Source: a virus. From it: DNA of 34,277 nt. A program made the translations under genes and the position numbers. This document shows, piece after piece, positions 3,227-34,277 of this stretch; the first letter of the stretch is position 1, and every line of letters begins with the position of its first letter. Under the pieces are notes generated by a model that ran no database searches, was not told the DNA's origin, and saw only the letters and a list, made by a program, of their open reading frames with translations. The DNA lies in UHGV virus genome UHGV-0115522. One strand, written 5' to 3'.

Positions 3227-3324
3227 CTATAATTGAGCCGCAGTTTTTGTCAACTACGAAGACGTTGCCATTACTTCACTCCTTGACATCATTGGCGGCC
3301 ATTAGGCCGCCTTTTTTTTGCCAT

Positions 3325-4718: not shown

Positions 4719-4771
4719 GCACAGTAATGAGGTGCTTAGATGTTCATATCAATATCCTAACTCTCTGCATC

Positions 4772-5461
4772 TCATAAATCTGATAGCCACTTACTATCTA
4801 TGGACTCAATCTCCGTCAGCGGAATTGATGGGAAAAAATATCCCTGAGCGCCCCATAGCCCTATCCCTTTTGATAACTTATGGCAATCAATGTTTTCGAC
4901 GCCTTCAGCGATGATATTCGGACATAACTTTTTTAAATTGCTAATAATGACATCAAAATGAGGCTTAATCATATGCTCTTGAAAAAATGACTTATCAAGT
5001 TTTATTGCATGATATTTATTTTTAATTAATGCTTTCATGGTGGCGTTACCACTTCCAAAATCATCAAGCCAAACATTATCTGTCAAAGTCAGTAGAAAGG
5101 ATATGATGTAATCCTCATCGCTTAAATCAGGATAGTTTTCTGATATCTCAATCGCTATAAATTTATTGTTTATTAGTAGTTCTTGAATTTGTTTATTGCC
5201 ATATATATATAAACAGGTATCATAATCTGCATTGATAGAGCATAATATATTATGGCATTCAAAAAAATACTTATACTTGATTATTGTGTTAAGTTGAGAT
5301 TTTAGCAAGTTAATCTTCATCTTGCTTGTAAACATACCTAATACTTTCTGAGTAGAAAGAATAGCCCCCTCGTTGGAATAAAATCTGCTCAACACTTCCA
5401 CTGCTATCAACTTGTTAGTGCTTGTGGAAATGATTGGTTCTACTATGTAGATAACTTCCAT
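4772..5461 (-). CDS. Standalone EAL-domain protein, predicted c-di-GMP phosphodiesterase
   Basis: 229 aa with EAL signature positions in order: EVL (in AVEVLSRF), EISE, DDFGSGNAT, IKLDKSF, IIAEGVEN, AQGYFF. GAGGG-type SD upstream of ATG. Gene is visibly AT-rich relative to the P1-like flanks. Confidence 0.8.
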   Translation of the reverse strand: MEVIYIVEPIISTSTNKLIAVEVLSRFYSNEGAILSTQKVLGMFTSKMKINLLKSQLNTIIKYKYFFECHNILCSINADYDTCLYIYGNKQIQELLINNKFIAIEISENYPDLSDEDYIISFLLTLTDNVWLDDFGSGNATMKALIKNKYHAIKLDKSFFQEHMIKPHFDVIISNLKKLCPNIIAEGVENIDCHKLSKGIGLWGAQGYFFPSIPLTEIESIDSKWLSDL

Positions 5462-5683
5462 GCTCCCACCCTCTATTTTTAAATTGGTTGGCTTTAGCAG
5501 ATAAAGTGCCCTTTATATTTACAGGGGTTACACACTATGTCAATTTATTTATCTGTAGTGAAATTGATAAAAATTAAATAATAAAAAGCAGCAACTATGA
5601 CACAAATCAATATTTTTATTTTTTGCACAACTTCTTGATTTCAGTGCTGCTGTATCTCTATTCTTGTTCAAAGCCTCTTTAGA

Positions 5684-6417
5684 ATGGTGGTAGCTATGTC
5701 AGGAGTCTGTTACTTCATCCTTATAAAGAAACCGATAAATTTTCAATTTCTTAAGGATTTCTTAATATTAAATTATGGTGATGTGCTGTTGCTTAAACAT
5801 TCTGAACGCGAATTCTTACAAACCTATTCAGATAAATATATCGAATTCGAACTTAATGATAGTGCTGTAAGAAACTATTTATCTTGTCACAATCACCAAG
5901 GGAAGCAACTTCTGGATAAATGCCCACATTTGCTAAAAAAGTCTTTTGCTTATCCTGATTTATTAATCAGGATGATCGATAATATAAGTGACCAGAATCA
6001 TATACATCCTGATTTTAAGGATGCTTTAACTTTTTCATTACTTTCAATTTTTAGTGATGTTGACAACCTTAGAGCTTTTCTTAAGTCTGGTATGCCTACT
6101 TTCTCAGGGAAAGTACGCAGCATATTTCTTTCAGATGTATCTAAACATTGGAAACTAAGAGACTTAACTGATTATCTATACATAGTGAGAGTTTAATAAA
6201 GAAAAAACTCTTATTAGAAAACACCTCCTTCAGTAAGTTATTACTTGATACACGAATGGCTTTTGCTATTAAATTACTAAAGCAAACCCGCCCCCTCAAA
6301 CAAGTATCAAAAAGTTGTGGTTTTAGTAGCATATCGTACTTTGTGTGCCTATTTAGGCAGTATTATAATTGTACACCATGTGAATATGTAAAACATCAGT
6401 TATCATCTGGGAAATAA
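5684..6417 (+). pseudogene. AraC-family transcriptional regulator interrupted by a frameshift
   Basis: Frame 2 ORF (5684-6196) ends with the first helix of an AraC HTH (KHWKLRDLTDYLYI). Frame 1 continues from about 6172 to stop 6415-6417 with the rest of the domain (SESLIKKKLL...LDTRMAFAIKLLKQTRPLKQVSKSCGFSSISYF...YYNCTPCEYVKHQ). The shift is near 6181-6190 and not in a homopolymer. Confidence 0.55.
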
Positions 6418-6455
6418 GATGCATTTATCTCCCAGATAGTATTGTAATATTAAAC

Positions 6456-6704
6456 TCAGTCAGCATTTAGTAGCAGAGCATTATCTATGATGATCTGCTC
6501 CCATTCTTCGAATGCCCGGTCGCGGACGCCCTGGGGAACGCTGTTTGTTTTGAAATCGACGACCGTCCGCCATTTCCCGTCCGGACGGTACATGCGCAGA
6601 GCTTTACTTCCCCCTTCCCTGCGCACCTCAACGTTATGCTTGTCAGCAAACTCTTGTAATGCTCGTAGCGTCCCATGCTTTACTGTGTAGTATCGCTTTT
6701 TCAA
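6456..6704 (-). CDS. lxc: Lxc/Bof-like C1 co-repressor (tentative)
   Basis: 82-aa ORF; size and position (downstream of the darB-like gene, same strand) fit P1 lxc/bof as I recall. Assignment rests on synteny and length, not a verified alignment. Confidence 0.5.
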   Translation of the reverse strand: MKKRYYTVKHGTLRALQEFADKHNVEVRREGGSKALRMYRPDGKWRTVVDFKTNSVPQGVRDRAFEEWEQIIIDNALLLNAD

Positions 6705-7141
6705 GTTTTCTCTCCAGCCTGTGCCAAGGCTTCAACTTCCAAATCGTAAGACTCAAACTCATAGTCCTGGTCGTCAACTTCTTCAGGGACTGGCAGTAAA
6801 TGCCAGGCTGAGTATATCTGACCATTATCAAAACGCTCCTGGCTGTAGAGCGTCGCGGCTATGAGTGTTAGCGCCGGGCGGTCATAACGGTAAAATTTGC
6901 GAACGTCACGGTCAACGAGACGACCGAAATTACCATAACCGCGCTCCAGTAATAATTTTTTAATTTCCGGCCAGTATGGGCCATAGCTGCGGTACAGGCG
7001 GGGATTTTTCAGTAATCGCCCGCGTAGCCCTGACAGGAAGAAATCAACGTATTCGTCTTCTGTCTTTCCTAACAACGCTGTACGGAGTACCGCCTCAAGA
7101 TATGTTTTATTCGGTTTTATTGTATCAGATAGTGTGGCCAT
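6701..7141 (-). CDS. Hypothetical protein (position of ulx in P1 as I recall)
   Basis: 146-aa ORF overlapping the next gene by 4 nt (translational coupling); no motif recognised. Confidence 0.5.
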   Translation of the reverse strand: MATLSDTIKPNKTYLEAVLRTALLGKTEDEYVDFFLSGLRGRLLKNPRLYRSYGPYWPEIKKLLLERGYGNFGRLVDRDVRKFYRYDRPALTLIAATLYSQERFDNGQIYSAWHLLPVPEEVDDQDYEFESYDLEVEALAQAGEKT

Positions 7142-7174
7142 ATTATGCGACGCCCGGCGAACCGGGCGCTCCTG

Positions 7175-10100
7175 TTATGCGTATTGTTGGATGACGGCCA
7201 GAACGTCCGCCACGTTGTGTTTTGTCTCGATAATCCACCAGTTGCCCGGGAAATCGCTGTTCTTCGCCTTCGCTGGCAGCCAGCGAGCGCCGAATTTTTT
7301 CTTGATTGCGTCTTTAGCACGGAAAAGAACGCCTTTCATGCCGGACGCCTCCTGAAGCCCAAATACCTCACCAGCTGCGAATTTTGGTGCGTACATCATC
7401 TTCAGGTCGGCGGTGGATACGCGATAATTCAGACCAAGAGACTGAGCTATGCTGGTGGCATCACCCTGTATTGATGATAACTCTTCTTGTTTCTCGTTTC
7501 TGGCGGCAATTTCTTCCTCCGTGATGTTGCCTAGGGCCAGGTTTATCCGATCAGCGTCGGCCTGTTTCTCTTCATCGGTGCGCCCGGCAAGAACCGTGTT
7601 AATTCTCTGCAATATCTCAACATGATTCTTGCGCATGCTAAGCAATTCCGGCGTAACCTCGTTAAGGTCCACCAGCCCAAGGATGGCAAGGTCGGAAAAC
7701 ATTGATACCAGGTTGTAGGTCATGCGATAGCTGAGTTGCCCATAGGCTGATGGCAACTGCACCGCATCCATTTGATAGGCATCCATAAATTTAGAGCCGT
7801 CGTTTACGACATCCGCAATTGCCGGTGTGATTTTCCCTGTGGTGGCGACCTCCCTGATTGCTGTTACCCACGATTGAGTCAGCGCGGCGACTGCATGATT
7901 CAGATTGGCTTTCCGTTCTGCTGCAATACGCGCGCTTGCAGCGTCCATTGCCTGCTTGATCTCGTCTTTATTGCTGTAAATGCCAATGGTGCCAAACTGT
8001 GCTGTGGTGATCTCATAATCTGACGCCCGGAACTCATGGGTACCGAAAATGGCATTGGTGACCTCAAGTTCAGAATCCCCGTTACGAGTAGCCCCCTGGC
8101 TTGTTTTCTCCGGCATTCTGGCGATCGCATCCGCTATTTTCTCCTGAATTGCTTCAGGGGATAGCGTATCTCCGTATGACGCGATTACTTCGCCATAATT
8201 GGAGCCAAACAGTTCAGTCAGGAATACTTCTGCCAAACGGACCTGGCGGTTATTCCCTTCCGACATCATACCAAGCACCCATTTTGCAATTGACGACTTC
8301 AGCGCGCCGTCACGGCGATCCTGGTAAACCGCATGCTTCAGTGGGTCCGTATAGGTACCAACAAAATCAATGCTATAGCCTGACTCTGTAGTCTGAACGC
8401 CGTATGAGTCAGTGATTTTGATCATGCCGCGCTGCTGGAAACGGTAGAAATCGTCACAGGAAATGATGTCGTTAATCCCGGCGATGGAGACGCCACCACT
8501 GATTTTCTGCATAACAGCATCTTCATCGGGAGTTACATCCACCTGTTTATCCAGCGTCTTCACATCCCAGTTACCCGATTTGGTGCCTTTGAAGGTAAAG
8601 ATGATCTCCACGTCTGCGCGCTGGCTGTCGAAGTCCAGCGACTTAATGCGAACGATATCACCGGCACAATCGTAGTATTGGCCTACACGCCATGAGCGAT
8701 CGCCGATAACAAGGAACTCATTCGCATGGTTAACCAGATCAGGATCAACATCCAGAATGCCTTTATTTATTGCATCCTCCACCAGCGGGCGCAGGCGTTT
8801 GATATCCGTCGCGGCCTTCTGAGTACGGTTCAATAATTTCTCATAGCGGGAGATGGCTTGAGTGATATTAGCCTTGCGCTGAATGGCGCTTTTCAACGAC
8901 GCGCGATAATGTGCTAACAACGTACGGTCTGTGTGATGGACGCTACCCCAGCGGGCCTTCCAGTCTGCATTATCAGCTGCTTTGGCCATTACCGCCTGTT
9001 TAAATTTAGCTACCTCGGCGGTGGTCTTTTCAAGTTCCGCTTTACTTCGCTCTAATTCAGCGGTAAGAGCCGCAACATCCTCGCCAGCTGCATGTTGCGC
9101 CTTGATGTAGTTCTGAAGGTCGATAGCGGCCTGTTCTTTCTGGCGGGCGCGTTGCGCGGCTTTCGCCTTATCCATTTGAACCTGCATCATTGCCAGACGT
9201 TCGCCATCATCCTTAGCGGTATACATCTGCATTTCGATCATATCGTTGGCGTCGGCGTTCTCCATTTCTGACTTATCTGAACGGAGGATATCGGAGATCC
9301 AGCCTGCTTTACGCTTCAGCGTCTTCAGTCGGTATTCATCGAAAGAACCCTTGCCGCAGTAGTAATGAACGCGAACGCTTGCACGGTTGGAGCCAACTCG
9401 GGCACCGCGACCGTTACGCTGTGCGACACTGGCTGGTGTCCATGGCAACGTCAGATGATGGATGTCAGTCGTTCCTCGATGCAGGTTGATACCCACCTCT
9501 GCCTTTTTGTTGCAGATGATGATCGGAGTCCGGCCCTCCTGGAAGTCGGCTGCAATCTTTTCCAGACCGCCCAACGACATTTCATTTTGCTGCGCGATAT
9601 AGGCGTCATACAGAGCCATTTGCTCGTTGTATTTCGCTATCTGTGCATCTGTTGGTTCATCCGGTAACTCTTTCGGCGGTTTAACCGCTTTCAGTTTCTT
9701 ACCGGTTTTACCTGCCTCGGCAACCGTCTGAGCATTCAGGATCCTTACCTTTGAAGGTTCAAGGTTAAGAGCATTGCAGATAATGCGCTTGAGCTTCTGG
9801 TGCTGCGTTTTTTCGTCGGTGAAGATGATTTGCTTCCCTTCCGGGAAAAACTCCTTCAGCGTGGCAATCAGCTTCGCGTATTTGGGCGTAACGGGGTGAG
9901 TTACGGTCTGTTCGTCAATGCCAAACCTGGCCAGGCGCTTATTCACTTCCTGCTCGAACGCTTCCGGAACCTGCAACTGAATAAACTCGCCCTTATCTAT
10001 CAGGGAGTATTGCGATTGCTGCGTGATTGAATCATCACTGTCGTCGTCTTCGCTGGTGGCTTGTTTAGGCAAACTGTCCGCCAGCTGCTGCACCGCATCG

Positions 10101-11200
10101 GCGTACTCCGGCAGGAAACGATAGGTGATCCGGCGATAGTACAGGTCCATGTCAGTACATACGCGGTCCATATCCCTGATTATTGAGAAGATCGGACGGG
10201 CTTTCTCGTGCTCAATCACTCCGTCTTCATCGACCGAGGTCGTTACGCCATTGTTGGCTTTGGCCACCGCTTCCGCCTGCTGGCGTAATTCTTCATACGC
10301 CGCCAGTTGTTCTTCAGTAAGTGGTGCATCCTGCTGGTGTTCGTCCAGTTCCGGGATCTCCACGGTATCCTTAACGTCTTCCGCCGTTTTAAGCGTTGTC
10401 CAGCGATGGAATATGCCGCGCAGCGCATCAAGGTTTTCAAAGCCCACCAGCGCCATTTTTTCTTCAACTTCACCGCTGATTTTCTGTACCGTTTCCAGCC
10501 TGGTCTTGCCGAAGAATTTAACGAAGTCATCAGGACCGTAGATCCCCATCTTCTGCCAGTATTCCTTCGGCAGCACATGAGAAAGCATGTTGTATGCATC
10601 GATCGGGGTGTTAACGACTGGCGTTGCAGTCAGGAGAACCGGTCCGCGCCCACCATTCTTTTTCATCAGGTACGCGTTTTTAATTGCCATATCCCGCGCC
10701 GATTGCGCCACCGCGCTGGTGGGCAGATAGGCCAGTTGTGACGCTTCGCGACCATTTTTATAGCTATTGCGGTAGTTGTGACCTTCGTCAGCGATCACAC
10801 TATCGAAGCCCATATCCTCAAAGTACGGATACTTCTCTGCTTTTTCGGTACCGGTATCTGAATACTCCGACAATACCCGGCGACGCGCGGCCTCTTTGCG
10901 GTGGGAGTCGGAGTCCATTGCGCTGGCTACGCGCCCGGCGGCAACGAAGTCATAAAGCATATCCTGTGCATGCTCATCTACGGTGTCATCACGTAGCGGA
11001 GTGCGGGCGTATTGTTCTTTGGTAAACACGACTGCACGGTAATTTGAGTGCGGGATCGCGTTCATCCGCGCCGTGATAGTGGCTTCATCTGCCAGTTTTA
11101 GGGCATCGCGCATAACTGGAGTGCCATCAGTACCAAGAACAGGAGCACCTCCCACGCTAACGCGCGGGCCCCGAATCTCACCGTTCTGAAACCACAACAA
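7175..11200 (-). CDS. DarB-like superfamily-2 helicase, apparently missing its 5' portion
   Basis: 1341-aa ORF with helicase motif II (VIADEGHNY), motif III (LLTATPVVN) and motif VI (QRNGRGARVG), but no Walker A (GxGKT) in the 135 aa before DEGH. Frame closes at 11207-11209 just upstream of a TTG start. Long C-terminal extension. Confidence 0.65.
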   Translation of the reverse strand: MLWFQNGEIRGPRVSVGGAPVLGTDGTPVMRDALKLADEATITARMNAIPHSNYRAVVFTKEQYARTPLRDDTVDEHAQDMLYDFVAAGRVASAMDSDSHRKEAARRRVLSEYSDTGTEKAEKYPYFEDMGFDSVIADEGHNYRNSYKNGREASQLAYLPTSAVAQSARDMAIKNAYLMKKNGGRGPVLLTATPVVNTPIDAYNMLSHVLPKEYWQKMGIYGPDDFVKFFGKTRLETVQKISGEVEEKMALVGFENLDALRGIFHRWTTLKTAEDVKDTVEIPELDEHQQDAPLTEEQLAAYEELRQQAEAVAKANNGVTTSVDEDGVIEHEKARPIFSIIRDMDRVCTDMDLYYRRITYRFLPEYADAVQQLADSLPKQATSEDDDSDDSITQQSQYSLIDKGEFIQLQVPEAFEQEVNKRLARFGIDEQTVTHPVTPKYAKLIATLKEFFPEGKQIIFTDEKTQHQKLKRIICNALNLEPSKVRILNAQTVAEAGKTGKKLKAVKPPKELPDEPTDAQIAKYNEQMALYDAYIAQQNEMSLGGLEKIAADFQEGRTPIIICNKKAEVGINLHRGTTDIHHLTLPWTPASVAQRNGRGARVGSNRASVRVHYYCGKGSFDEYRLKTLKRKAGWISDILRSDKSEMENADANDMIEMQMYTAKDDGERLAMMQVQMDKAKAAQRARQKEQAAIDLQNYIKAQHAAGEDVAALTAELERSKAELEKTTAEVAKFKQAVMAKAADNADWKARWGSVHHTDRTLLAHYRASLKSAIQRKANITQAISRYEKLLNRTQKAATDIKRLRPLVEDAINKGILDVDPDLVNHANEFLVIGDRSWRVGQYYDCAGDIVRIKSLDFDSQRADVEIIFTFKGTKSGNWDVKTLDKQVDVTPDEDAVMQKISGGVSIAGINDIISCDDFYRFQQRGMIKITDSYGVQTTESGYSIDFVGTYTDPLKHAVYQDRRDGALKSSIAKWVLGMMSEGNNRQVRLAEVFLTELFGSNYGEVIASYGDTLSPEAIQEKIADAIARMPEKTSQGATRNGDSELEVTNAIFGTHEFRASDYEITTAQFGTIGIYSNKDEIKQAMDAASARIAAERKANLNHAVAALTQSWVTAIREVATTGKITPAIADVVNDGSKFMDAYQMDAVQLPSAYGQLSYRMTYNLVSMFSDLAILGLVDLNEVTPELLSMRKNHVEILQRINTVLAGRTDEEKQADADRINLALGNITEEEIAARNEKQEELSSIQGDATSIAQSLGLNYRVSTADLKMMYAPKFAAGEVFGLQEASGMKGVLFRAKDAIKKKFGARWLPAKAKNSDFPGNWWIIETKHNVADVLAVIQQYA

Positions 11201-11209
11201 AAAAAATCA

Positions 11210-11720
11210 GGAATAAAAAACACCACACAAACACAGCACTGTACCCCCCCTCATAACTGAAAAGCGCCGCCGCCCCCGCCCGAAGGGCGGGAACAACATC
11301 GCTTTTAATTATGAATGTTGTAAGTACATTGTCATCGCTGTCAGTCTTCTGGCTGGAAGTCCTCAGTACACGCTCGTAAGCGGCCCTCACGGCCCGCTAA
11401 CGCGGAGATACGCCCCGACTTCGGGTACACCCTCGTCGGGACCACTCCGACCGCGCATAAAGGCTCTGTCATGGCTGAAAACGGGTATGGCTTAGCAGGG
11501 CCGGGGGTGGGTAAGGTGAAATCTATCAGTCAGTACCGGCTTACGCCGGGCTTCGGCGGTTTTACTCCGGTATCATATGAAACAACAGAGTGCCGCCTTC
11601 CATGCCGCTGGCGCGGCATCAGGACAATTGAAGAGTGACGGCGCACATTAACATCAAACAGACTTGTTAAGCAGTCTTTCAGGGTGTAATCTGAAGACCT
11701 GTTAAATAGTCTCAGAGGTG
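11210..11720. other. GC-rich, hairpin-dense noncoding segment at the darB break
   Basis: No convincing ORF. Perfect hairpin cccgccc-gaag-ggcggg (about 11276-11292), cccgac/gtcggg (about 11414-11440), atgccgc-tggc-gcggcat (about 11592-11609) and a near-palindrome cagtctttcag/ctgaagacctg just upstream of stbD. Confidence 0.3.
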
Positions 11721-11724
11721 TGTT

Positions 11725-11976
11725 ATGCCCAGTATCATTTTGTCTGACACCAGTGCAAGCGTCAGTGAGCTGAAAAAAAATCCGATGGCAACTGTCAGTG
11801 CCGGAGAGGGGTATCCTGTTGCCATTCTTAACCGGAATCAGCCAGCATTCTACTGTGTCCCTGCTGAGCTCTATGAAAGAATGCTTGATGCCTTGGATGA
11901 CCAGGAGCTGGTAAAACTGGTTACTGAACGCAGCAGTCAGCCTCTGCATGATGTGGACCTGGACAGTTATTTATGA
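11725..11976 (+). CDS. stbD: RelB/StbD-family antitoxin
   Basis: 83 aa (MPSIILSDTSASVSELKKNPMATVSAGEGYPVAILNRNQPAFYCVPAELYERMLDALDDQELVKL...) matches plasmid StbD antitoxins from memory; overlaps the toxin gene by 4 nt (ATGA). Confidence 0.85.
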   Translation: MPSIILSDTSASVSELKKNPMATVSAGEGYPVAILNRNQPAFYCVPAELYERMLDALDDQELVKLVTERSSQPLHDVDLDSYL

Positions 11977-12260
11977 CTTATACAGTAAAATTCCGGGATG
12001 ATGCACTGAAAGAATGGCTCAGACTGGACAAGACCATTCAGCAGCAGTTCGCAAAAAAACTGAAAAAATGCAGTGAAAATCCTCATATAGCTTCTGCAAA
12101 ACTACGTGGATTAAAGGACTGCTATAAAATCAAACTTCGCGCATCAGGTTTTCGTCTGGTTTATCAGATTATTGATGATATGTTAATTATTGCGGTCGTC
12201 GCAGTAGGTAAACGTGAACGCAGCAACGTTTATCATCTCGCCAGTGAACGGATGAAATAA
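11973..12260 (+). CDS. stbE: RelE/StbE-family toxin (mRNA interferase)
   Basis: 95 aa (MTYTVKFRDDALKEWLRLDKTIQQQFAKKLKKCSENPHIASAKLRGLKDCYKIKLRASGFRLVYQIIDDMLIIAVVAVGKRERSNVY) with RelE/ParE-fold hallmarks; coupled to the antitoxin. Confidence 0.85.
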   Translation: MTYTVKFRDDALKEWLRLDKTIQQQFAKKLKKCSENPHIASAKLRGLKDCYKIKLRASGFRLVYQIIDDMLIIAVVAVGKRERSNVYHLASERMK

Positions 12261-13119
12261 TATCCTGGTCAGCACTCTTTCTTACCTGCTTCCATTTTTT
12301 CAGTGATTCTTTTCCTGCATGCAGAAAAAAAGCCTACCCTGTGGGCAGGCATAACAGACAATCGCACAGTCAGTGTTGAAATTAATGATGTCACGCATTA
12401 TACCCGGTGGATACACAAACCATCCCTGCAAATGCATTGGCATCCTAATCAACGTCTGAAACAACTGCAATGGCCGGACCTGTGATTTCAGAGAAAGTTA
12501 TTATGTTTATTGAATATAACCGAAGTGATAAATAAAAGTATTATCACCTTTAATATTTATGCTTATTGCGTGGTTTTATCTGGTTATATAAAGCACAGAT
12601 GTTCTTATTATTTTCTGAAAAATAACCATATGGATCGATTTCCCCCACCCAGCCGAAGCGGTTCGGCTCGTTCGGCGTATCGTCGACACTGAAGCGCTTA
12701 TCCATTTCGTTCCAGCGGTAAGAGTTGTCGCTGTCGCTGACGAATGCCATCGGGTCGCTAAACAGCGTGATCCGCCATGCGATCAAAAAGCGTAAGTGTT
12801 TCCGACAGACGAGCCGGTGAAAAAAGTGGTGTGTCTGGCAATACAGGCATCGTCCCCGAAATGGACGATGCCGTTGAAGGACTGGGGTATGGCAATAAGC
12901 CGCTTTATTATCGGATTCAGTGACCGCCTGGACGGTTACTTTTGAGAAAAGGCATTTACACACAATCCTAAACAGACTCCTATATTTCAGATTTTGTTAT
13001 CAACGCATTTCAAATCTCTTAGAAATCATTACTGTCGTCATATTTTCCGAGGCAGCTCACCACCTAACTATGTCTTATCAACAATATTTTGTGAAGGATA
13101 TTTATAATGTAAAGACACA

Positions 13120-16100
13120 TCAGAAACGATATTCCACACTCAACATGGCAGATGTATTATGGTATCCATGTTCTCCAAGTTGAATGCCTGCATCAGCCCG
13201 GAATGCTACTTCTGGTGTTATCATTCCCACAACACCACCATTTATTTCTCCGATATCACGCGCACCATCCTGGTATATACTTACACCATTCATACTGGTG
13301 CCGAAAACACGACTATTGTGCAACCAGTGTGCCTCCACAAATGGTCTGAACGGAACCGCATACCGCGTATTTTTACCGTTTTTGCTGGTAAGCCATGTTC
13401 TTGCTCCCAGGCGGGTGAGAATATTTCCGTTACCGGTATTTTCAATACTGGTTCCGTTACTTTCATGATATTTGTCTGATTTTACATTCATCCGGACAAC
13501 CTGAAGCTGCGGCTGAACATACCATTCATGACTTCCCTTGTAATTGTCGGTAAACTCTCCAGCCTTCCATGAATATCCTGCTTCCAGAGATACCGTAAAC
13601 CCTTTTGACTTCCATGACTCAGCAGGCAGCCGTTCTCCATTTATATGATTATCAAACCAGCTGTATTGCAGCCAGCTATCAAGATAAGAACCATTGTGTG
13701 TTTCATCATTGGCATACCATGTTGCATAAAGACCCGCTGTGTATCCATTCATTCTTCCTTCCGAATGGTATCCGGTGCTCAGGGCATTCGTACTGTTATT
13801 ATTATGACCATAGCCAGCCATCATACCTGTATGCCAGCGATCGGTACCATTCAGGCTCCACTGAGCTATATCTCCCCCTATTAACACAACGTAGCTATTC
13901 CCCCGGGTTCTCAGCTGACTACTGTTGTCACGCCAGCGATTATGTTTTCCTTTATTATACATCCAGATACCTGCTTCATTTTCTTCTCCTGTCATGTGGC
14001 TGATATACAACTCCTGTCCCTGTCGTTCATACAGATTCGTTACAAACAGATTATTTGCAGCAGCAATACTGGCAACATAGCTACCTGCCTCAGGACGCAA
14101 ATTATTATCATGGCTTTCCGGTACAGCTTCAGGTTGTGGTACAGGAATGTCTTTTCTGCTAATCAGATACCAGTTAGTGCTGTTAATCCCCTGACCACGT
14201 TTCAGTATGTAATCATAAGCTCCGGCTGTAATACGTTCCGTCTGAATGAATTCAGCATTATCAGCATTGCCACTGACGTGAATCACTTCAATCCCATTAA
14301 GTGTCTCTGCACCAGTACCACCGGCCTGAGTAACAGCGACACGGGTACGGCCACTGGCATTACCTTTAATCACCAGACGATCTGTTTTCGAATTGTCACC
14401 ACCTGTTTCTGTCTGGAGGAGAATAAGTCCATTTCTGCCAGTGTAATTCCCTCCGACAGTCAGTATATTACCCGGCATATATGTAGTGAGATCGACTATA
14501 CCACTATTGCTCAGATTTCCTGCAACGCCCCCAAACCCGGAGAGTTTGCCCTGCTCTTCAACAATGACCTGGTTACTGCCGAGCATCACCGGTGAATCTG
14601 CGTTCCCCAGTATCACTGTCCCCTGAATAATATCTGTCATCCCGGTCCATTTTGCGTTATCGCTAATGTTCAGTGCACCTGCTCCCGTCTTGCGAACATT
14701 ACCATAACCACTGATATTGTTGGTAAGCTGCCATGCTGATGTACTGTTCAGAGTTAATGTGCCATAGTTATCAACAAAGGCTGTCCCCAGATTATCAGCC
14801 GTGGATACAGCCAAATGAGCCCCCTTATTCACGGTAAAAACACCGGAAAAATTACGATTATTACCCGTTATATCAAGCATTCCCCCATTTATGTTCAGAG
14901 AACCATCCCCTGCAATAGTACCTGCAGATTCTCCTCCATTATTCAGTATCAGGCTTCCGCCATGAATGTTCAGCACAGAGCCTGCAGCCGTCAGTAGTTT
15001 GCTTATTGTCTGAGGATACCCATTCATATCCAGTTCTGCGCCACGGGATAAATATAAATACTCAGTCCGACCAAGAGCATCAGGTGCAGCAAGAATTAAT
15101 ACGCCAGATTTAACCTCTGTATTTCCTGTATAATTGTTTGTTGCAGAAAGTATAAGAGTACCATTACCTGATTTTGTCAGACTTTTGCCGTCCCAGCCAT
15201 CATATAATAAAGGTGAAAGATTATCGGAAAGAGAAACGCCTATGTTCAGAGTGGCATCTTTTTCTATATTAAAGGTTCCATATCCCATCCCTTTTGTATT
15301 ATTCCATCTCAGCATGGATATCAGTTTGTTATCGTCGTCATTTAAAGACGTATAAACATAACTTTCAGCACCTTCTGTCAGTAATGCATTGTATTGTACA
15401 ATGTGACTATTATCAGCGATCGAGATACCTGTGTCTGACGACAATAATGTGTAATAGTCCTGAGTCCAGTTCTTAATTGATGTGTCTATATTAAGCCATG
15501 AATCACTTTTTAATGTAATAGTATTTGCGTGAACATTAGCATTTCCTACAGACAGGTTCATAGATGCGTCTTCATCAATACTTATATTTCCGTTAAAAAT
15601 GGAGTTCTTGCCTGACAGATAAACAGATGAGCCATTCCCAATCATTAGCCCACCATTAATTGCTGTTGCGTTATTGATGTTTTTAATAATTAATTCATTT
15701 GTACCATTAACAGGTATACTAGCTAGTTTAATATCACCATTAATCACAGAATCTGAATAAATATCTAATGAATTATACCCGCCAGAAAAAATTATTGATG
15801 TATTATAAGCATCTTTTTGGCTATTATATAATCCTGAAAGATTACCATGATTACTAATATGGATATCTTCTCCATAAACAGAGCAACCACCGTCGGGGCC
15901 ATATCCCCCCTGAACAATACCGTTATTATTCAAAGTGATTTGATTTCCAGAAATAGCATCTCCCCCTTGTTTTATTCCATATCCTCCAGATATCATGTTG
16001 CCGTTAGTAATGAAAAGATTACTACCATTAATACCATCACCACCGTTTACGCCATTACCGCCCAATATTCCTCCGGAATTATGCACTGTAATATTGCTAC

Positions 16101-16617
16101 CGGTTACACCGGAACCACCTGTCCCACCTACATCATCACCTCCGTATATACTTCTGTAATTATCAACTATAATATCATCCCCGCTTAACCCTGCACCTCC
16201 GCTACTTCCTGAGCCACCAAGACCATTACCCCCATATACATTTCTGTAATTGTTTATAGATATTTTGTTGCCACTAACAGCAATTCCACCATTATATCCA
16301 TCGCCTCCCCAAACACTACCATTATTATTTAGCGTAAAGTTTTCACCGTAGACACCTGCACCACCGATTGATGTATTGCTTGTTCCTCCTTTGATGTTAA
16401 TACTGCTTTCAACAGATAGTATATTTTGAGTATAACTTGTTTTATACGGCACGCTGATATTAAGCGCCGCGTTTCCATCAACACCTGTAATACTCCTGGT
16501 TATACTTTCAGGTATACCATTACCATTCAGTTGTATTGTTTGCGCACCAGAAAAATGAGACTGCACAGAATAAATTATACTGACCAGAAATTGTAAAATT
16601 CGTATATTCTTATTCAT
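13120..16617 (-). CDS. Autotransporter (type Va) with AIDA/pertactin-like glycine-rich passenger and C-terminal beta-barrel
   Basis: 1165 aa. N-terminal signal peptide (MNKNIRILQFLVSIIYSVQSHFSGAQT), long passenger with reiterated GG-x-G-x-NG-type repeats, and a C-terminus ending ...SAMLSVEYRF typical of outer-membrane barrel closure. AT-rich. Confidence 0.85.
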   Translation of the reverse strand: MNKNIRILQFLVSIIYSVQSHFSGAQTIQLNGNGIPESITRSITGVDGNAALNISVPYKTSYTQNILSVESSINIKGGTSNTSIGGAGVYGENFTLNNNGSVWGGDGYNGGIAVSGNKISINNYRNVYGGNGLGGSGSSGGAGLSGDDIIVDNYRSIYGGDDVGGTGGSGVTGSNITVHNSGGILGGNGVNGGDGINGSNLFITNGNMISGGYGIKQGGDAISGNQITLNNNGIVQGGYGPDGGCSVYGEDIHISNHGNLSGLYNSQKDAYNTSIIFSGGYNSLDIYSDSVINGDIKLASIPVNGTNELIIKNINNATAINGGLMIGNGSSVYLSGKNSIFNGNISIDEDASMNLSVGNANVHANTITLKSDSWLNIDTSIKNWTQDYYTLLSSDTGISIADNSHIVQYNALLTEGAESYVYTSLNDDDNKLISMLRWNNTKGMGYGTFNIEKDATLNIGVSLSDNLSPLLYDGWDGKSLTKSGNGTLILSATNNYTGNTEVKSGVLILAAPDALGRTEYLYLSRGAELDMNGYPQTISKLLTAAGSVLNIHGGSLILNNGGESAGTIAGDGSLNINGGMLDITGNNRNFSGVFTVNKGAHLAVSTADNLGTAFVDNYGTLTLNSTSAWQLTNNISGYGNVRKTGAGALNISDNAKWTGMTDIIQGTVILGNADSPVMLGSNQVIVEEQGKLSGFGGVAGNLSNSGIVDLTTYMPGNILTVGGNYTGRNGLILLQTETGGDNSKTDRLVIKGNASGRTRVAVTQAGGTGAETLNGIEVIHVSGNADNAEFIQTERITAGAYDYILKRGQGINSTNWYLISRKDIPVPQPEAVPESHDNNLRPEAGSYVASIAAANNLFVTNLYERQGQELYISHMTGEENEAGIWMYNKGKHNRWRDNSSQLRTRGNSYVVLIGGDIAQWSLNGTDRWHTGMMAGYGHNNNSTNALSTGYHSEGRMNGYTAGLYATWYANDETHNGSYLDSWLQYSWFDNHINGERLPAESWKSKGFTVSLEAGYSWKAGEFTDNYKGSHEWYVQPQLQVVRMNVKSDKYHESNGTSIENTGNGNILTRLGARTWLTSKNGKNTRYAVPFRPFVEAHWLHNSRVFGTSMNGVSIYQDGARDIGEINGGVVGMITPEVAFRADAGIQLGEHGYHNTSAMLSVEYRF

Positions 16618-17201
16618 ACTGTTTTTTCTTTAGTGATGCATTTTTTATCAACCATACAAGCACATTATTTCATTGATACTAATCACATCAGGATGAATGT
16701 TTTTTCTCAATAGAAATAAGTGTCTTTATTTCTTACCAATTTATTCTGGTTATTCCTCTTATCCAGACGTCTCGTGATACTCCCTGTATTTATTATAGAG
16801 TATATATATGTACTGCGTTTAAATCATGAAGACGACAACCTGTTTTACATAAATTATTCCTAAGTATTTTTCCAGAGAAGACCTAGGTATAATGATGTGC
16901 ACTGTCTGGTTTTCTTACAACTGACTTAGCGATCTGCATATCCGTGATAACGCCTGAATAAATAGGACGAGAGAACTCTTAACCAAATAATCTAACACTT
17001 TTAATCGACAGGAATTAAAAACCCGGGGAGGTTAAAAAAACACAAAAAAATGGATGTTTATTCAACTCTGGTTACGTACCATGAGGACTGCATCCACAAT
17101 GCACCGGCAATTAAATGGCTTTCATTGATTGATTTTTTATATCTGTGATGATTTTTTGCTCCATTCCTCAAAAAATGGACGCAACTTCCCCTCTGCGGCT
17201 C

Positions 17202-17555
17202 TCAGCTGTATACCCGCTGTCGTGCCAGTGGCTCATGCATCATGACCAGCTCTGCCAGACGGTAGCCCCGCTTCAGCCCCGTAAACCGCATCTGACCTCC
17301 GCACAGGATGCACTTCAGCGGGTCAACCTTCAGTAACCGCTGATACACCCTTCTCCGCCTGATTTGCATCGCCGTTTTTCTCTCCGTTTCTGTTATGACG
17401 TACACAACATTTTCCAGTAACCGGCGCTTCACCGGACTCAGGAACCCGTTGTCAACGCCACGATGTTTGACCGTTCTGGGGATGCGGACGATTTCCTGGA
17501 CTGCTTTATCATTCCAGCCCGCATTGTTGGCGGTACATTTTGGGGCTGACTGCAC
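17202..17555 (-). CDS. C-terminal fragment of an unidentified gene cut by the adjacent IS (possible transposase remnant)
   Basis: 117-aa ORF whose 5' end overlaps the end of the IS3-family transposase. Contains CILCGG; family not recognised. Confidence 0.25.
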   Translation of the reverse strand: MQSAPKCTANNAGWNDKAVQEIVRIPRTVKHRGVDNGFLSPVKRRLLENVVYVITETERKTAMQIRRRRVYQRLLKVDPLKCILCGGQMRFTGLKRGYRLAELVMMHEPLARQRVYS

Positions 17556-19043
17556 CCGGCGATAATTTTATACGCCGCTCGTTATACCATCTGATGTAAG
17601 TATCCACTTGCTGCATGAACTTTTCTGGCGTGATGCCCGACCATTTACGCCCATAATACATTTCCGTTTTCAGTCTGCCGAAAAAGCCTTCGCATGCCGC
17701 ATTATCAGGTGAACATCCTTTGCGGGACATTGAGCGAATAAGACCTTCTGCATTCACTCTTTCCAGCCAGCCTGACCAGCGATAATGCCCACCTCTGTCA
17801 CTGTGTATCACCGGTCGTTCACCAGCATTTAACGTTTCGACAGCGCTATCCAGCATAGTGTTGACCAGTTCAGCATCGGGGCGTGTACTGAGAGACCAGC
17901 TCACAACTTTTCCATCGAAGCAGTCCACCACCGATGATAGCCAGACTTTACCTGCAGGGAGGTGGAACTCCGTGATATCTGTCAGCTATTTCTGATTAGG
18001 TTGCTCCGCCTTAAAATCTCTGGCGATAAGGTTATCCGGAGCCGGTCCGATTTCTCCGCAATATGAGCTGTAGCGGCGACGACGGTTACGGCTGACGACA
18101 AGCTGTTCTTCCACCATAAGTCTGCGTACAACCTTTTCTGATAGCCGCCCCCCCCCTCATGCCTGAGCATCGCATGCAGGCGACGATAGCCATAACACTG
18201 GTAATTACTGTTAAATATATCTGTCAGCATCGTACGTATCGTGGCGTATTTATCACCGGCTTTCAGTGCAGCCCGGTGATAAAAATAACTGCTACGGGCA
18301 AGGCCCAGAACATGCAGTAATTCTGTCAGGGGATATGTTTGTCTCAGGGCATCAGCGATCTTCGTTTTCTCTCTGTTGTTCAGGTGACTGATACTGATGC
18401 CCGGGTCTTTTTTTATGATTTCCTCCGCCTTTTTCAGAATATCCAGCTCCATCTGCCGGCGGCGTATTTCCTGATTCAGTCGGGCGACTTCCTCCCGCAA
18501 CGCATCGCGTTCTGCCTCCAGGGAAGGTTCGTTATGTTTACGCATAGTCTGGTAAGCACTGTTGCCGATAATTTTATCTTTCCATTTATACAATACCGCA
18601 CGACTGACACCAATACGCCTGGCGATTTCACTGGCTGATACTTGTCGTGTACAGAGTGCCATGACAGCCTGACGTTTGACTTCTGGTTCAAAGGGCGCAA
18701 CCGGGTTGGCCTTACTGGTAAATATACGTCGTCTGTCGGGATAAAGTTCATTAACCCAGCGAGCGAGTACATCAGTGCAGGGATAACCCAGGGCTCTGCT
18801 GGTAAACGCCAGGCAGCAGCCGTGGTTAAGATAATGTTCAACGGCAACCTGTTTTTGCTCATCGGAGTAACGGTGCTTATGACGAATGGATTCTTTTGCG
18901 CCACCACCTGCTTCCCATGAGCGGATCCAACGCCGCAGATTTCTTTTCGAAGGGTAGCCCAGTTCGCGTACGACGGGAGCCAGCTTCTTACCATATTTGA
19001 AATAAAGCTCAATGGCGCGGATTTTTTCTTCTTCAGTAAACAT
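17509..19043 (-). pseudogene. IS3-family transposase (OrfA-OrfB), disrupted
   Basis: ORF 17982-19043 has two HTH modules plus the OrfB N-terminus; ORF 17509-17931 has the DDE-integrase C-terminal part (HSDRGGHY...SPDNAACEGFF...WYNERR) in another frame. A 9-nt C homopolymer (18148-18156, G9 on the coding strand) lies in between. Confidence 0.65.
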
Positions 19044-19095
19044 GTTTTATCTCCTGAGAGTCCAGGAAATCGTCCGCATCCCCATTTACCGTCTT
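17509..19095 (-). mobile_element. IS3-family insertion sequence, degraded
   Basis: Boundaries approximate, set from the extent of the transposase ORFs and the start of the adjacent IS911-like element. Confidence 0.5.
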
Positions 19096-19108
19096 ATATC
19101 TGTAGTGG

Positions 19109-21229
<2,121 letters not shown>

Positions 21230-21492
21230 GTAGCCTTTTTTAATATTTCATTTTCCATTTCAATACGTTGTAGCTTTTTCCTGAGCTCACGGATTTCAAT
21301 TTGTTCCGGGGTAATGGGGGAGGCTTTTGGTGTTTTTCCCTGCCGCTCATCACGTAATTGTTTCACCCATCGCGTCATTGTGGAAAGGCCGACATCCATA
21401 GCGCTGGCTGCATCTGCCACGGTGTAATTCTGGTCAACGACCAGTTGAGCGGATTCGCGTTTAAACTCTGCGCTGAAATTTCTTTTTTTCAT
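21230..21492 (-). pseudogene. IS911-like OrfA, interrupted by IS30 near its 3' end
   Basis: Starts [88 protein letters not shown], then runs into IS30. Removing IS30 and one GT copy restores ...[16 protein letters not shown]-stop using 19955-20008. Confidence 0.8.
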
Positions 21493-21676
21493 TATGGCAC
21501 CTGTGTTGTTCTGAGGTGAGCATATCACCTCTGTTCAGGTGGCCAAATTCAGTAAACCACTTCAGAGGGAAACGTTCAAAAGCAACCGCCGGGAAAATGA
21601 AGGCTGAAGGGCAGAAAAAAGGTTACCCGATGTTAAAGAACGTGAGGTCAGAGACGGCGTTCTGTGCTTCCGTCGT

Positions 21677-30422: not shown

Positions 30423-30557
30423 AGCTAATTCCTTATTAACTGATTGGCAACGAGGTTACGCTGATCCGTTGGTGATGAATAGTAGCAAAGCGCACAAAAT
30501 CATCTGCGGTGGTTGATGTACATAACGCGTTTGCACCAAAGGTGTCTCTTTAATGTA

Positions 30558-30577
30558 TACTGTATAAATAAACAGTA
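30558..30577. promoter_or_regulatory. LexA box (SOS operator)
   Basis: TACTGTATAAATAAACAGTA: CTGT-N8-ACAG in an AT-rich palindrome, 20 nt upstream of the humD start. Confidence 0.8.
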
Positions 30578-30596
30578 TTGTTGAGGTGAAAACGCT

Positions 30597-30986
30597 ATGG
30601 GCTTCCCTTCTCCTGCGGCGGATTATGTTGAAAGCAGAATTTCTCTTGATCAGCAACTAATCAGGCATCCATCAGCGACATACTTCATGCGGGCGGCAGA
30701 CAGCCATCACCGTGAGGGAATATTGCAGGGTGCTTTGCTGGTGGTTGATTCCTCGCTTACTCCGGTTGATGGTTCGCTGCTTGTCTGCGCTATGGAGGGT
30801 GAATATCGCATAAAGAGATACCGAAAGTATCCGCGCCAGCACCTGGAGGATTTAAGCACCGGGAAGAAAGAGGCGTTACCAGTAGATGACGATGGTTACA
30901 CGGGTAGTAATGCTGTTTTTGGTGTGATCACTCATGTCATCAATGATGCCCGAAGTGGGGAATTTGATGACTGTCCGGTGATTTAA
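30597..30986 (+). CDS. humD: HumD, UmuD'-like translesion-synthesis accessory protein
   Basis: 129 aa with the S24-peptidase/UmuD fold signature (ATYFMRAADSHHREGILQGALLVVDSSLTPVDGSLLVCAMEGEYRIKRY). Confidence 0.85.
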   Translation: MGFPSPAADYVESRISLDQQLIRHPSATYFMRAADSHHREGILQGALLVVDSSLTPVDGSLLVCAMEGEYRIKRYRKYPRQHLEDLSTGKKEALPVDDDGYTGSNAVFGVITHVINDARSGEFDDCPVI

Positions 30987-31021
30987 GCTGCAAAGTGCTG
31001 GTGCTTTATGCCTGTGAAGTT

Positions 31022-31050
31022 TATAATTGTGTACACATAACGAGTACACG
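31022..31050 (+). promoter_or_regulatory. phd-doc promoter/operator region
   Basis: TATAAT at 31022-31027, then perfect palindrome TGTGTACACA (31028-31037) and a second GAGTACAC half-repeat, just upstream of the phd SD. Confidence 0.6.
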
Positions 31051-31058
31051 AGGTGTTT

Positions 31059-31280
31059 ATGCAATCCATTAACTTCCGTACCGCGCGCGGCAACCTTTCT
31101 GAAGTGCTCAACAATGTTGAAGCCGGGGAAGAGGTTGAAATCACCCGCAGAGGCCGTGAGCCAGCAGTAATTGTCAGCAAGGCTACTTTCGAAGCCTACA
31201 AAAAAGCGGCGCTGGATGCTGAATTTGCATCCCTGTTTGACACCCTGGACTCCACCAACAAGGAACTGGTTAACCGATAA
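31059..31280 (+). CDS. phd: Phd antitoxin
   Basis: 73 aa from ATG 31059 ([73 protein letters not shown]) matches P1 Phd from memory. Confidence 0.93.
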
Positions 31281-31660
31281 TGAGGCATATATCACCGGAA
31301 GAACTTATTGCGCTTCATGATGCGAATATAAGCCGCTACGGCGGCCTGCCGGGAATGTCAGATCCGGGTAGGGCAGAGGCCATTATCGGGAGAGTTCAGG
31401 CCAGAGTTGCCTACGAAGAGATCACCGACCTTTTCGAAGTCTCCGCCACCTACCTGGTGGCTACAGCGAGAGGGCATATATTCAATGATGCCAATAAGCG
31501 TACCGCGCTAAACAGTGCGCTGCTATTTCTACGCCGTAACGGGGTGCAGGTATTTGATTCACCTGAACTGGCAGACCTTACTGTAGGCGCTGCGACTGGC
31601 GAGATATCTGTATCTTCTGTCGCCGCCACGTTACGTAGATTGTATGGTTCTGCGGAGTAG
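31280..31660 (+). CDS. doc: Doc toxin (Fic-fold kinase)
   Basis: 126 aa ([78 protein letters not shown]...) matches P1 Doc from memory; start overlaps the phd stop (TAATG). Confidence 0.93.
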
Positions 31661-31664
31661 ATTA

Positions 31665-31844
31665 ATGGCACGCAAATACAACAAATTGTCCCGTGAAGCG
31701 TTAAAGATGCTTCTTGATGGCGTGAGTCGCCGCGAGGTAAAGCAATACCTGGTTGGTAAGCAAATTGGAGCCAGGACTGCTATTGCTGTGTTATGCCGTC
31801 AGGAAATGGTTGTGCTTAAACAGATAATGCCGGGCAGCAGATAA
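31665..31844 (+). CDS. Small basic hypothetical protein after doc
   Basis: 59 aa from ATG 31665 (MARKYNKLSREALKMLLDGVSRREVKQYLVGKQ...), 4 nt after the doc stop. Confidence 0.45.
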   Translation: MARKYNKLSREALKMLLDGVSRREVKQYLVGKQIGARTAIAVLCRQEMVVLKQIMPGSR

Positions 31845-31871
31845 AGCCCAATCAGTGATTAAAGGTGTGAT

Positions 31872-32771
31872 GTGAAAGCCGTAATTACTCCCTTTGTACA
31901 GAAAGAGCTTGGCCTCGCCACGTTCAAAGTGGATCAGGAGGTCCGAAAGCTGGTGGAGGCTGGCCGTAAATTTATTATGGAGCCGGTGCCGCGTGAGTTA
32001 ATCGAGCACATGGAAGACGGCCTCGTTGTTACGGAGCAAACCATGGCAACAAATGAGGCGTTGCAGCCGTTTTTTAACAGCGATGAACTGTTTCGCCGTA
32101 TTGGTGGAATTGACGCGCTGGTGGCGTGGTTGCGTAGGAAAGAGGGTCAATGCCAGGCCGCAGATCGTAGTTGGTGTGACAACCATATTGTCCACGCAGA
32201 ACGAGACAATAGCGCGGTGTTGTTGTGCTGGCATCACGATAACCATTACCGGATGCGTGGTTTTAATGAGCTGAAAGAAACGCTGCACAATAATCGCGTT
32301 AACTGGATACTGGATGTCGCCCGTCAGGAAATGGGCCTTTCAAATAGCCATGATTTAAGTATTCAGGAGCTGTGCTGGTGGGCTTTCATGCGCAACATGA
32401 TGCACCTGATGCCGGAAGAAGTCTGCCGCATATCAATAAATAAGATGAAGGCTACTCCGCAGGATAGCGGACCTCTGAAAGAGGCGGATATTCGCCCGTA
32501 TGACGATCGCGCTACAGCATATGTTCAAATGATGGAAGAACGCGCCGCGCCGATGCGTGCAAAAGTATGCCCTGTGGATGTTGACTCCGACCCAGGTATG
32601 GCGCATTTCAAAATACCAAAACTTCAATCGCTAAAATTGCCCGAGTACATGGACTTTGTGGCTTCCCGTCCATGCTGTGGCTGTGGAGCTGCGGGAGCTG
32701 GCGCTCACATTACGCCTTATATCGTTCGTCATAGTCGATTATTTCACGGTGAAAGAAGTGGTGCTGGATGA
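31872..32771 (+). CDS. Hypothetical protein; the 3' end may be frameshifted
   Basis: 299-aa ORF (GTG start, AAAGG SD). Its last 35 residues are Gly/Ala/Cys-rich filler ([13 protein letters not shown]...), while the overlapping frame 32656-32883 encodes a well-formed tail (...QIRLTPQLTGKGQQWLTRKLLDAGLLKPVAAE). Confidence 0.5.
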
Positions 32772-32915
32772 TGAAGATGGCTATCAGATACGGTTGACGC
32801 CTCAATTAACGGGTAAAGGCCAGCAGTGGTTGACGCGTAAACTGCTCGATGCTGGCTTGTTAAAACCGGTGGCGGCTGAATAATGGAAGAATGCCCGGTT
32901 GATGCCGGGCATAAT

Positions 32916-33767
32916 TTATTGCGCGCTTTCGGGGTTGTCGTTTACTGGCTGCCCCTTCTTGGTTTTACGGCTGCGCGTAACTGATGCGGCTGACTTAACC
33001 TTTTTCTCTTCGCGAGTGATGGCAATTTGTTTTTTTACATTTTCAATATCTGCCAGGCGATATATTTTTGCTTGTGGCCAGCGGTCGCAGATGATCGGTT
33101 CTATGGAGTCATAAAGGCTAAATTTTGCTTTCTCGAATTCACCGTTGATGATGATTCCATCACGGAGAGTTTCATCGCAGATAAACACGCCACACAGCGG
33201 CACATGGTAACTAACTGATTTACCGTTATTGTAGTTAGGACTACTGGAGATGTAGTGAACGCGCAGCATTGTTTCGCTAAAGCCGTGTACGCGCATACGG
33301 AATTTTTCATCCTCCGGGTACTGCTTCATTAGCTCTTTTGTTGCTTCCAGGTTCTCTATGTATTTCGCACTGTGCTCATTGAACCCCGCGCTTTTTTGGA
33401 TGCGAATGTCCTTATCAATCAGATGAATAATGCGGCCAGCGGTCATGTTGACGCTGTTTACAGCTTCTGTCTGATAGGTCGTAACCTTACGCACACCGCG
33501 AAGGATGTTAGGCACAGGATATAAAATAGTCTTTGGGATATTGAGGTCTGGGTACTGTTCCAGTTCCCGCGCCATTAAAGTCCATTTATCAATTTCAGCC
33601 TGAATGCTGTCCGTTTCTTTGAACGGCAGAACGACAACCGGGCGTACAGGACGACCGTCGCTGGCGGCATCAACGTGTTGGGCGCGTGCAACAGCTTTTT
33701 TTAGAAAGAGATCCCTGAAGCTGACGAACTCCTGGTACAGTTGTTCGCCGTAGACATAATTTATCAT
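32916..33767 (-). CDS. c1: C1 repressor of lysis
   Basis: 283-aa translation (MINYVYGEQLYQEFVSFRDLFLKKAVARAQHVDAASDGRPVRPVVVLPFKETDSIQAEIDKW...) matches P1 C1 from memory, and cognate operator-like sites recur across the window. Confidence 0.9.
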   Translation of the reverse strand: MINYVYGEQLYQEFVSFRDLFLKKAVARAQHVDAASDGRPVRPVVVLPFKETDSIQAEIDKWTLMARELEQYPDLNIPKTILYPVPNILRGVRKVTTYQTEAVNSVNMTAGRIIHLIDKDIRIQKSAGFNEHSAKYIENLEATKELMKQYPEDEKFRMRVHGFSETMLRVHYISSSPNYNNGKSVSYHVPLCGVFICDETLRDGIIINGEFEKAKFSLYDSIEPIICDRWPQAKIYRLADIENVKKQIAITREEKKVKSAASVTRSRKTKKGQPVNDNPESAQ

Positions 33768-33862: not shown

Positions 33863-33879
33863 GATTTATTAGTGCATTT
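33863..33879 (-). promoter_or_regulatory. Degenerate C1 operator-like site in the c1 upstream region
   Basis: Reverse complement AATGCACTAATAAATCT (14/17) between the coi stop and the c1 start. Confidence 0.5.
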
Positions 33880-34087
33880 ATTGTGAGTCTGGCTGGTTAG
33901 TGGCCATGAGATATTCGATTGTGTCAGTGAGGTCATCCAGGTCGTCTTGGGTGATGCGGTACTCCTGATTGGATATCTTTGAGTAGTGTTCAGCAATGGC
34001 GCGGGCAGCGTCGGTTTCGGCGGGGTCTACAGATAAAGCGTTAGAGCAATGTCTAACATCGTCGATGGTTGGTGGAATGAAAGCCAT
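33878..34087 (-). CDS. coi: Coi-like C1 inactivator
   Basis: 69-aa acidic ORF immediately upstream of c1 on the same strand; length and position match P1 coi as I recall. Not verified by alignment. Confidence 0.7.
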   Translation of the reverse strand: MAFIPPTIDDVRHCSNALSVDPAETDAARAIAEHYSKISNQEYRITQDDLDDLTDTIEYLMATNQPDSQ

Positions 34088-34222
34088 AATTATGCCTCAC
34101 TGTATTGACAACACAGAGCCTGAAGCTCTGACCTACTGTTTCACCCATGTTCCATGCTGGGGTTATCTATCAACATTGCGCTGTGTGTAAGATGAGCAAT
34201 GCATAGCGGTAATGCCGTTGTA

Positions 34223-34277
34223 GGTGATGCTGCCAACTTACTGATTTAGTGTATGATGGTGTTTTTGAGGTGCTCCA
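34223..34277 (+). mobile_element. IS1 terminal inverted repeat; element continues beyond the window
   Basis: GGTGATGCTGCCAACTTACTGATTTAGTGTATGATGGTGTTTTTGAGGTGCTCCA is the insA-proximal end of IS1 as I recall it, truncated by the window edge. Confidence 0.85.

Follow-up and report, generated by a model that had tools for sequence, protein, structure and literature searches.

The stretch between doc and c1 in the P1-related DNA described here raises the question of what has become of the packaging genes, and of what the two overlapping open reading frames (ORFs) found in their place encode. The window, by which is meant the whole stretch of DNA that was analysed (34,277 nucleotides), had been the subject of an earlier note, which stated that in P1 lpa and the pacA-pacB terminase genes lie between the post-doc genes and c1, proposed that these had been lost, attributed the overlapping ORFs to a probable frameshift and considered that the element would be unable to package itself.

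The doc-c1 interval of the window and of P1

The interval extends over 1,251 bp from the start of pdcA to the base before the c1 stop codon (31665-32915), with doc ending at 31660 and the c1 stop at 32916, in keeping with the length of about 1.25 kb that had been reported. Upstream lie the intact genes for the Phd antitoxin (31059-31280, plus strand), assigned by colinearity with P1 phd and by the PGAP annotation of identical sequence in pLKSZ04, and for the 126-aa Doc toxin (31280-31660, plus strand), while the downstream genes for the 283-aa C1 repressor (32916-33767) and the C1 inactivator Coi (33878-34087) are intact on the minus strand. The interval itself contains, all on the plus strand, the pdcA ORF (31665-31844; 59 aa according to PGAP, 66 aa from 31644 as in the P1 annotation), a 299-aa ORF (31872-32771, stop codon at 32769-32771) and an overlapping 75-codon ORF (32656-32883) in the +1 frame relative to pdcB.

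In P1 (NC_005856), as annotated by Lobocka et al. (2004), the region between pdcA and c1 is occupied by pdcB (347 aa), Olpa/Plpa, lpa, pacA with the pac cleavage sites, and pacB, the stop codon of which is 24 bp from that of c1, and the gene order given in the note was therefore correct. Comparison of the whole window with P1 by blastn found no match anywhere in the window to P1 89730-93231, and tblastn with P1 Lpa, PacA and PacB as queries likewise gave no match in the window, such that lpa, pacA, pac and pacB are found neither in the interval nor elsewhere in the window, bearing out the proposed terminase loss. The possibility, raised as a refutation, that P1 has the same gene content here is contradicted by the alignment. 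The genes humD, phd, doc, pdcA, pdcB (codons 1-290), c1, coi and imcB are colinear in P1 and the window, with 98.3% identity over window 30500-32742 and 97.2% identity over c1-coi-imcB. In contrast, the window lacks P1 89730-93206, comprising the pdcB 3′ end, the C1 operator Olpa, lpa, pacA, pac and pacB, and has beside c1 a 134-bp fragment of the 3′ end of ant, of which P1 has none at this place.

Between the convergent ant and c1 stops, a terminator-like hairpin (32891-32912, plus strand), called by consensus match only, consists of nine pairs rich in G+C followed by AATTTATT. The hairpin is also kept in intact relatives, lying as it does within the colinear block. It was the only notable result of a promoter and terminator scan in which counts were otherwise at chance level, and Rfam at the gathering threshold found no structured RNA in the whole window.

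The ancestral layout and its probable deletion

By blastn, colinearity with P1 ends inside pdcB at window 32742 (P1 89729), window 32740-32873 matches P1 49588-49721, the 3′ end of ant1/ant2, with 90% identity, and the match to P1 resumes in c1 at window 32917 (P1 93232). The break is therefore at 32740-32742 and not at 32640-32700, where a check for an indel had been proposed. Base-by-base comparison with pMRE162, P1 and pLR-21-1_3, with the blastn end points at 32742 and 32740, placed the junction at 32740-32742, where the trinucleotide TAT is common to the pdcB side (CGATTAT^GCGCG) and the ant side (GGGTAT^TTCAC). The junction is thus a direct observation, as is the layout from which it would have arisen, which is preserved in relatives.

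In pLR-21-1_3 (NZ_AP027490.1), which is 94 kb in size, non-mobilisable and otherwise P1-like, the gene order is pdcB-lpa-pacA-pacB-"ash"-icd-ant-c1. The ant gene encodes a 370-aa antirepressor with ORF6N and KilAC domains, c1 is convergent with ant, and Rfam detected two RNAs immediately before icd, one isrK-like and the other a C4 antisense RNA. Together the isrK-like RNA, the C4 RNA, icd and ant make up a complete second immI-like module between pacB and c1, present in many P1-like plasmids and lacking from reference P1 and P7. The module occupies 6256-7978 of the pLR-21-1_3 locus (L013), and what is left of it in the window is 32740-32883. On either side of the junction the window is colinear with pLR-21-1_3 at 96-98% identity, with positions 2778-7801 of the locus (5,024 bp) skipped. 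The ant fragment, the terminator hairpin and c1 are arranged in the window as in pLR-21-1_3, whereas the pdcB 3′ end, Olpa/Plpa, lpa, pacA with pac, pacB, the isrK-like and C4 RNAs, icd and ant codons 1-323 are absent from the window.

As such, the interval is very likely a deletion scar in a P1-derived plasmid that has stopped being a phage. The mechanism and the order of deletion that we infer would start from an ancestor with the layout pdcB - Olpa/Plpa - lpa - pacA (with pac) - pacB - second immI-like module - terminator - c1, in which illegitimate recombination at the 3-bp TAT microhomology would have fused pdcB codon 290 to codon 324 of the 370 codons of ant, with the loss of 5,024 bp, whether in a single event or as the final one of a nested series of deletions. 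An IS-mediated deletion at the window junction was also considered and, while historically possible, was set aside, there being no IS left at 32740 and nothing in the window that shows it; the equivalent junctions in CP098980 and phi456 contain IS1.

The alternative that copying or recombination brought an ant fragment from the canonical immI (P1 48.7-49.7 kb) in between pdcB and c1, in place of lpa-pacAB, is very unlikely. While it would be consistent with the observation that neither reference P1 nor P7 has an ant adjoining c1, and with the 90% identity of the fragment to P1 ant, the fragment is closer to the c1-adjacent copy than to P1's own ant, with 98% DNA identity to the 3′ end of the 370-aa ant of pLR-21-1_3. 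The colinearity of both flanks with intact relatives that hold the whole second immI module between pacB and c1 likewise argues against an imported fragment. A further argument against it is the frequency of the ant-c1 adjacency, as a 216-bp probe running from the 3′ end of ant across the spacer into the 3′ end of c1 gave an unbroken match in 400 of about 703 c1-bearing PLSDB records.

Occurrence of the junction in public genomes

A 501-bp sequence across the junction was 100% identical in 12 complete plasmids of PLSDB and 99.8% identical in a thirteenth. These 13 plasmids came from several laboratories and from E. coli, E. albertii, E. fergusonii, Shigella flexneri and Salmonella enterica, and the junction was also found in 12 complete E. 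coli genomes of RefSeq, a set that overlaps the PLSDB 13. No read or assembly error can account for a junction that recurs in 13 PLSDB records of several laboratories and five species. It is thus extremely improbable that a short-read assembler collapsed the region or mis-joined pdcB to ant-c1 through a short repeat. In keeping with such an artefact the window is bounded by 55 bp of IS26 and 56 bp of IS1, as is typical of short-read contigs, and ant-like sequence is present more than once in P1-like genomes; however, the overlap at the junction is merely 3 bp, far under any assembler k-mer, and different laboratories have recovered the identical 501 bp. The deletion of the pdcB-ant segment has also left its mark on existing annotation, with PGAP describing both pieces in pLKSZ04 as partial pseudogenes, the pdcB piece missing its C-terminus and ending at the equivalent of window 32741, and the ant piece missing its N-terminus and ending at the equivalent of window 32883.

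Two gene ends at the junction

The two overlapping ORFs derive from different genes. The pdcB pseudogene (31872-32741, plus strand) comprises codons 1-290 of the 347-aa PdcB, a member of the DUF968/HNH-endonuclease family, without the C-terminus. Alignment with PdcB of P1 and of pMRE162 showed that the 299-aa ORF consists of PdcB 1-290 followed by nine unrelated codons (FHGERSGAG). Its match to the Pfam DUF968 profile covers only 1-114 of 171, the domain being incomplete, while P1 PdcB covers 1-171, and PHROG 96 (HNH endonuclease) was matched over 1-283 of 334. The ant fragment (32740-32883, plus strand) is in the +1 frame relative to pdcB and comprises the last 47 codons and the stop codon of an Ant/KilAC antirepressor gene. 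The 75-codon ORF at 32656-32883 accordingly begins as out-of-frame pdcB sequence before running into the ant fragment. It matches the Pfam ANT/KilAC profile at 69-106 of 108 and has no N-terminal (ORF6N/Bro-like) domain, while the intact antirepressor of pLR-21-1_3 has ORF6N together with ANT profile 2-106. With tblastn, residues 296-345 of P1 Ant1 matched the window with 88% identity (E 7e-25).

It follows that the "well-formed C-terminus" ascribed to the second frame is that of an antirepressor (47 aa) rather than that of PdcB. There is next to no chance that pdcB is complete but for a frameshifting single-base indel, whether real or introduced in sequencing, with its true C-terminus in the other frame, as had been proposed from two overlapping ORFs in different frames that do superficially resemble a frameshift, for the upstream frame is PdcB 1-290 and the downstream frame Ant 324-370, pdcB homology at the DNA level stops abruptly at 32742, and the last 57 residues of PdcB (CAHDIYAIPLCQSCQ...) were absent when all frames were translated. 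On sequence grounds, no indel would restore pdcB. The 57 residues missing from the truncated PdcB include a pair of Cys belonging to the HNH-like motif, and there is no start codon on the Ant piece. From this domain truncation we infer a loss of PdcB function, and nothing functional would be encoded at the junction.

Other deletions between pdcB and c1

The window deletion is not alone, with at least eight different deletion junctions identified in this interval, at least seven of them in related plasmids. In coordinates of the pLR-21-1_3 locus, the window allele, with its TAT microhomology, has its left end at 2777 and its right end at 7802. The corresponding end points are 3178 and 7802 in pEF-3, 3178 and 7876 in pRWS531, 3236 and 7001 in pMRE162, 3199 and 7648 in pEC974-2 (with about 67 bp of filler) and 3045 and 5891 in pCrono684-2, while IS1 is present at the junctions of CP098980 (2825 and 7391) and phi456 (2370 and 7583). 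All have lost lpa and/or pacAB from the pdcB-c1 interval, and in most, as in the window, the deletion stops within the ant gene beside c1. The window allele is the only one among the IS-free alleles examined that truncates pdcB.

End points match to within a nucleotide on the right between the window and pEF-3 and on the left between pEF-3 and pRWS531, such that single and nested deletions are indistinguishable. Two SNPs separate the window from pEF-3 within 25 bp beside the junction. Sharing of end points by chance is unlikely. It could reflect recombination that prefers certain sites, with hot spots at G(N)(A/T)TA(T) motifs, but a first junction might equally well have been widened stepwise on one side. 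Such erosion would be driven by selection, once the element persists as a plasmid, against keeping the late activator, the pacase and the Icd/Ant module for induction. That the lpa-pacAB-icd-ant block is a preferred target for deletion in P1-derived plasmids is a doubtful proposition. The 92-kb pEC974-2, whose deletion here is smaller, shares the same decayed backbone and so does not place terminase loss ahead of the wider decay.

One of the IS1-containing alleles is from a genome deposited as a complete phage ('Escherichia phage phi456', OR339795.1), which has no lpa, pacA, pacB or ban and is also without P1 63-79 kb, which includes the tail genes 5, 6, 24, 7, 25 and 26. It has been reported as spontaneously released particles in a paper that nowhere mentions a terminase (PMC10967188).

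Packaging and retained functions

The absence of lpa and pacAB is observed in the window and equally in p13QT4 and pESA118_2, near-identical plasmids that are its closest complete relatives. Neither blastn nor tblastn gave a match to pacA, pacB or pac in any of the three, and a translated search for PacA and PacB homologues, as had been advised for the rest of the assembly, was thus negative in the window and in both relatives. Lpa gave no match in the window with either program and is absent from p13QT4 and pESA118_2. No other terminase was found in Pfam and PHROGs scans of 19 other window ORFs. By analogy only with the complete relatives, other contigs of the same assembly would hold no copy of pacAB.

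In P1, late transcription is abolished when Lpa is lost, and without PacA, PacB and pac headful packaging can no longer be initiated. If P1 biology applies, an element with no late-promoter activator would therefore have no late transcription, and one with neither pacase nor pac site would have no headful packaging. Loss of the Icd/Ant module would, again by reference to P1, remove one route to lifting C1 repression. The full set of head, tail and lysis genes is not present either, the window skipping P1 14437-79115. By comparison with its relatives, the element is very probably incapable of packaging itself. With no Lpa, PacA or PacB in the window, or in relatives that keep about 29.3 kb of P1, the earlier note's statement to this effect is supported and, if anything, was understated. 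What remains is, to judge by its gene content, plasmid equipment in the form of an intact phd-doc addiction module and the c1-coi immunity region. Seven C1-operator-like sites were found elsewhere in the window as opposed to 0.2 expected.

The mosaic backbone and its closest complete relatives

The P1 sequence of the window is retained as separate remnants (lox-cre-c8-ref and truncated mat; lxc-ulx and truncated darB; pmgP to truncated pmgT; upfM to truncated pdcB; and c1-coi-imcB) interrupted by IS3, IS30, an autotransporter gene, a RelE/ParE pair, an EAL-domain gene and a fragment of a methyl-accepting chemotaxis protein (MCP) gene. The P1 res-mod restriction-modification genes are replaced at window 4583-6460 by the EAL-domain gene (4772-5461, minus strand) and an ORF of 170 aa belonging to PHROG 1450. 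The darB gene is truncated at window 7175-11200, leaving a 1,341-codon ORF in which P1 homology stops at P1 14437. From there the window jumps to about P1 79115 across 10 kb of foreign and IS DNA. This segment of about 10 kb that is not from P1 (window 11143-21565) carries a RelE/ParE-Phd/YefM pair, the 1,165-aa autotransporter (13120-16617), IS3 and IS30. Between 25822 and 28926, pmgT-pmgU-pmgV are strongly divergent from P1 with only short matches of 82-94%, and several small ORFs match phage families lacking assigned function.

At its left end the window begins within an IS26 end (1-55, inverted repeat at 40-55), adjoining which is an ORF (43-861) with the signalling domain of a methyl-accepting chemotaxis protein and no N-terminal sensor part, probably a truncated passenger gene. 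At its right end it stops inside an IS1 copy, of which it contains the terminal 56 bp (34222-34277); this IS1 interrupts imcA, upstream of coi, at P1 position 94537. Both ends are typical of a short-read contig broken at repeats, and the window is therefore probably an entire contig. In p13QT4 the IS1 (118619-119387) is flanked by a 9-bp duplication of P1 94529-94537. The other side of IS1 differs in the genome of the window, where P1 resumes only at 94593 (window 1050), after unrelated DNA.

The closest complete relatives, p13QT4 (136.8 kb, carrying tet(X4)) and pESA118_2 (94.5 kb), are 99.5-99.98% identical to window 1050-34277, with 99.7-99.95% for p13QT4, and retain only about 29.3 kb of the 94.8 kb of P1. 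Neither has portal, lysis, tail fibre, baseplate, sit, tub, immI, kilA-repL or ban genes. The only morphogenesis genes left are bplB-pmgG-21-22-23, with Prt, Sit, Tub and Lyz absent, and the RepB-type initiator is only 42% identical to P1 RepA. The near-identical complete relatives encode MobI(A/C) and a TraI-domain protein (MOBH), together with tet(A), tet(X4), floR, sul and qnrS2. Within the window itself there are no relaxase, oriT or resistance genes.

Relation to known P1-derived plasmids

PLSDB contains 702 records with c1 but only 554 with at least 80% of pacA-pacB, and there would therefore be approximately 100-150 P1-like plasmids without an intact pacase. As regards annotation, the 299-aa and 75-aa ORFs should neither be called genes nor be "repaired" as a frameshift, and the contig should be classed as a defective P1-derived plasmid and not as a prophage. 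The junction is in addition a handy lineage marker for a backbone associated with tet(X4), tet(A) and other resistance genes in Escherichia, Shigella and Salmonella.

P1-like phage-plasmids have been shown to become plasmids by gene loss, mostly within one clade of the p0111 type, with the plasmids so derived often gaining mob or oriT and carrying more resistance genes (Pfeifer and Rocha, 2024; PMC10879196). The finding made here is already known, in that the window fits this published conversion of P1-like phage-plasmids and that the identical sequence is present in RefSeq with both of its pieces marked as partial pseudogenes. Like the P1-derived plasmids of that study, the window has many P1 homologues and is missing essential phage functions. 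Plasmids p13QT4, pESA118_2 and pLKSZ04 are of the same kind, keeping about 29 kb of P1 without the terminase and most morphogenesis genes and carrying MobI(A/C)/TraI (MOBH), many IS and resistance genes, with the mobilisation genes lying outside the window. The window thus belongs to a known kind, the defective phage-plasmid turned plasmid, from which it does not differ in kind.
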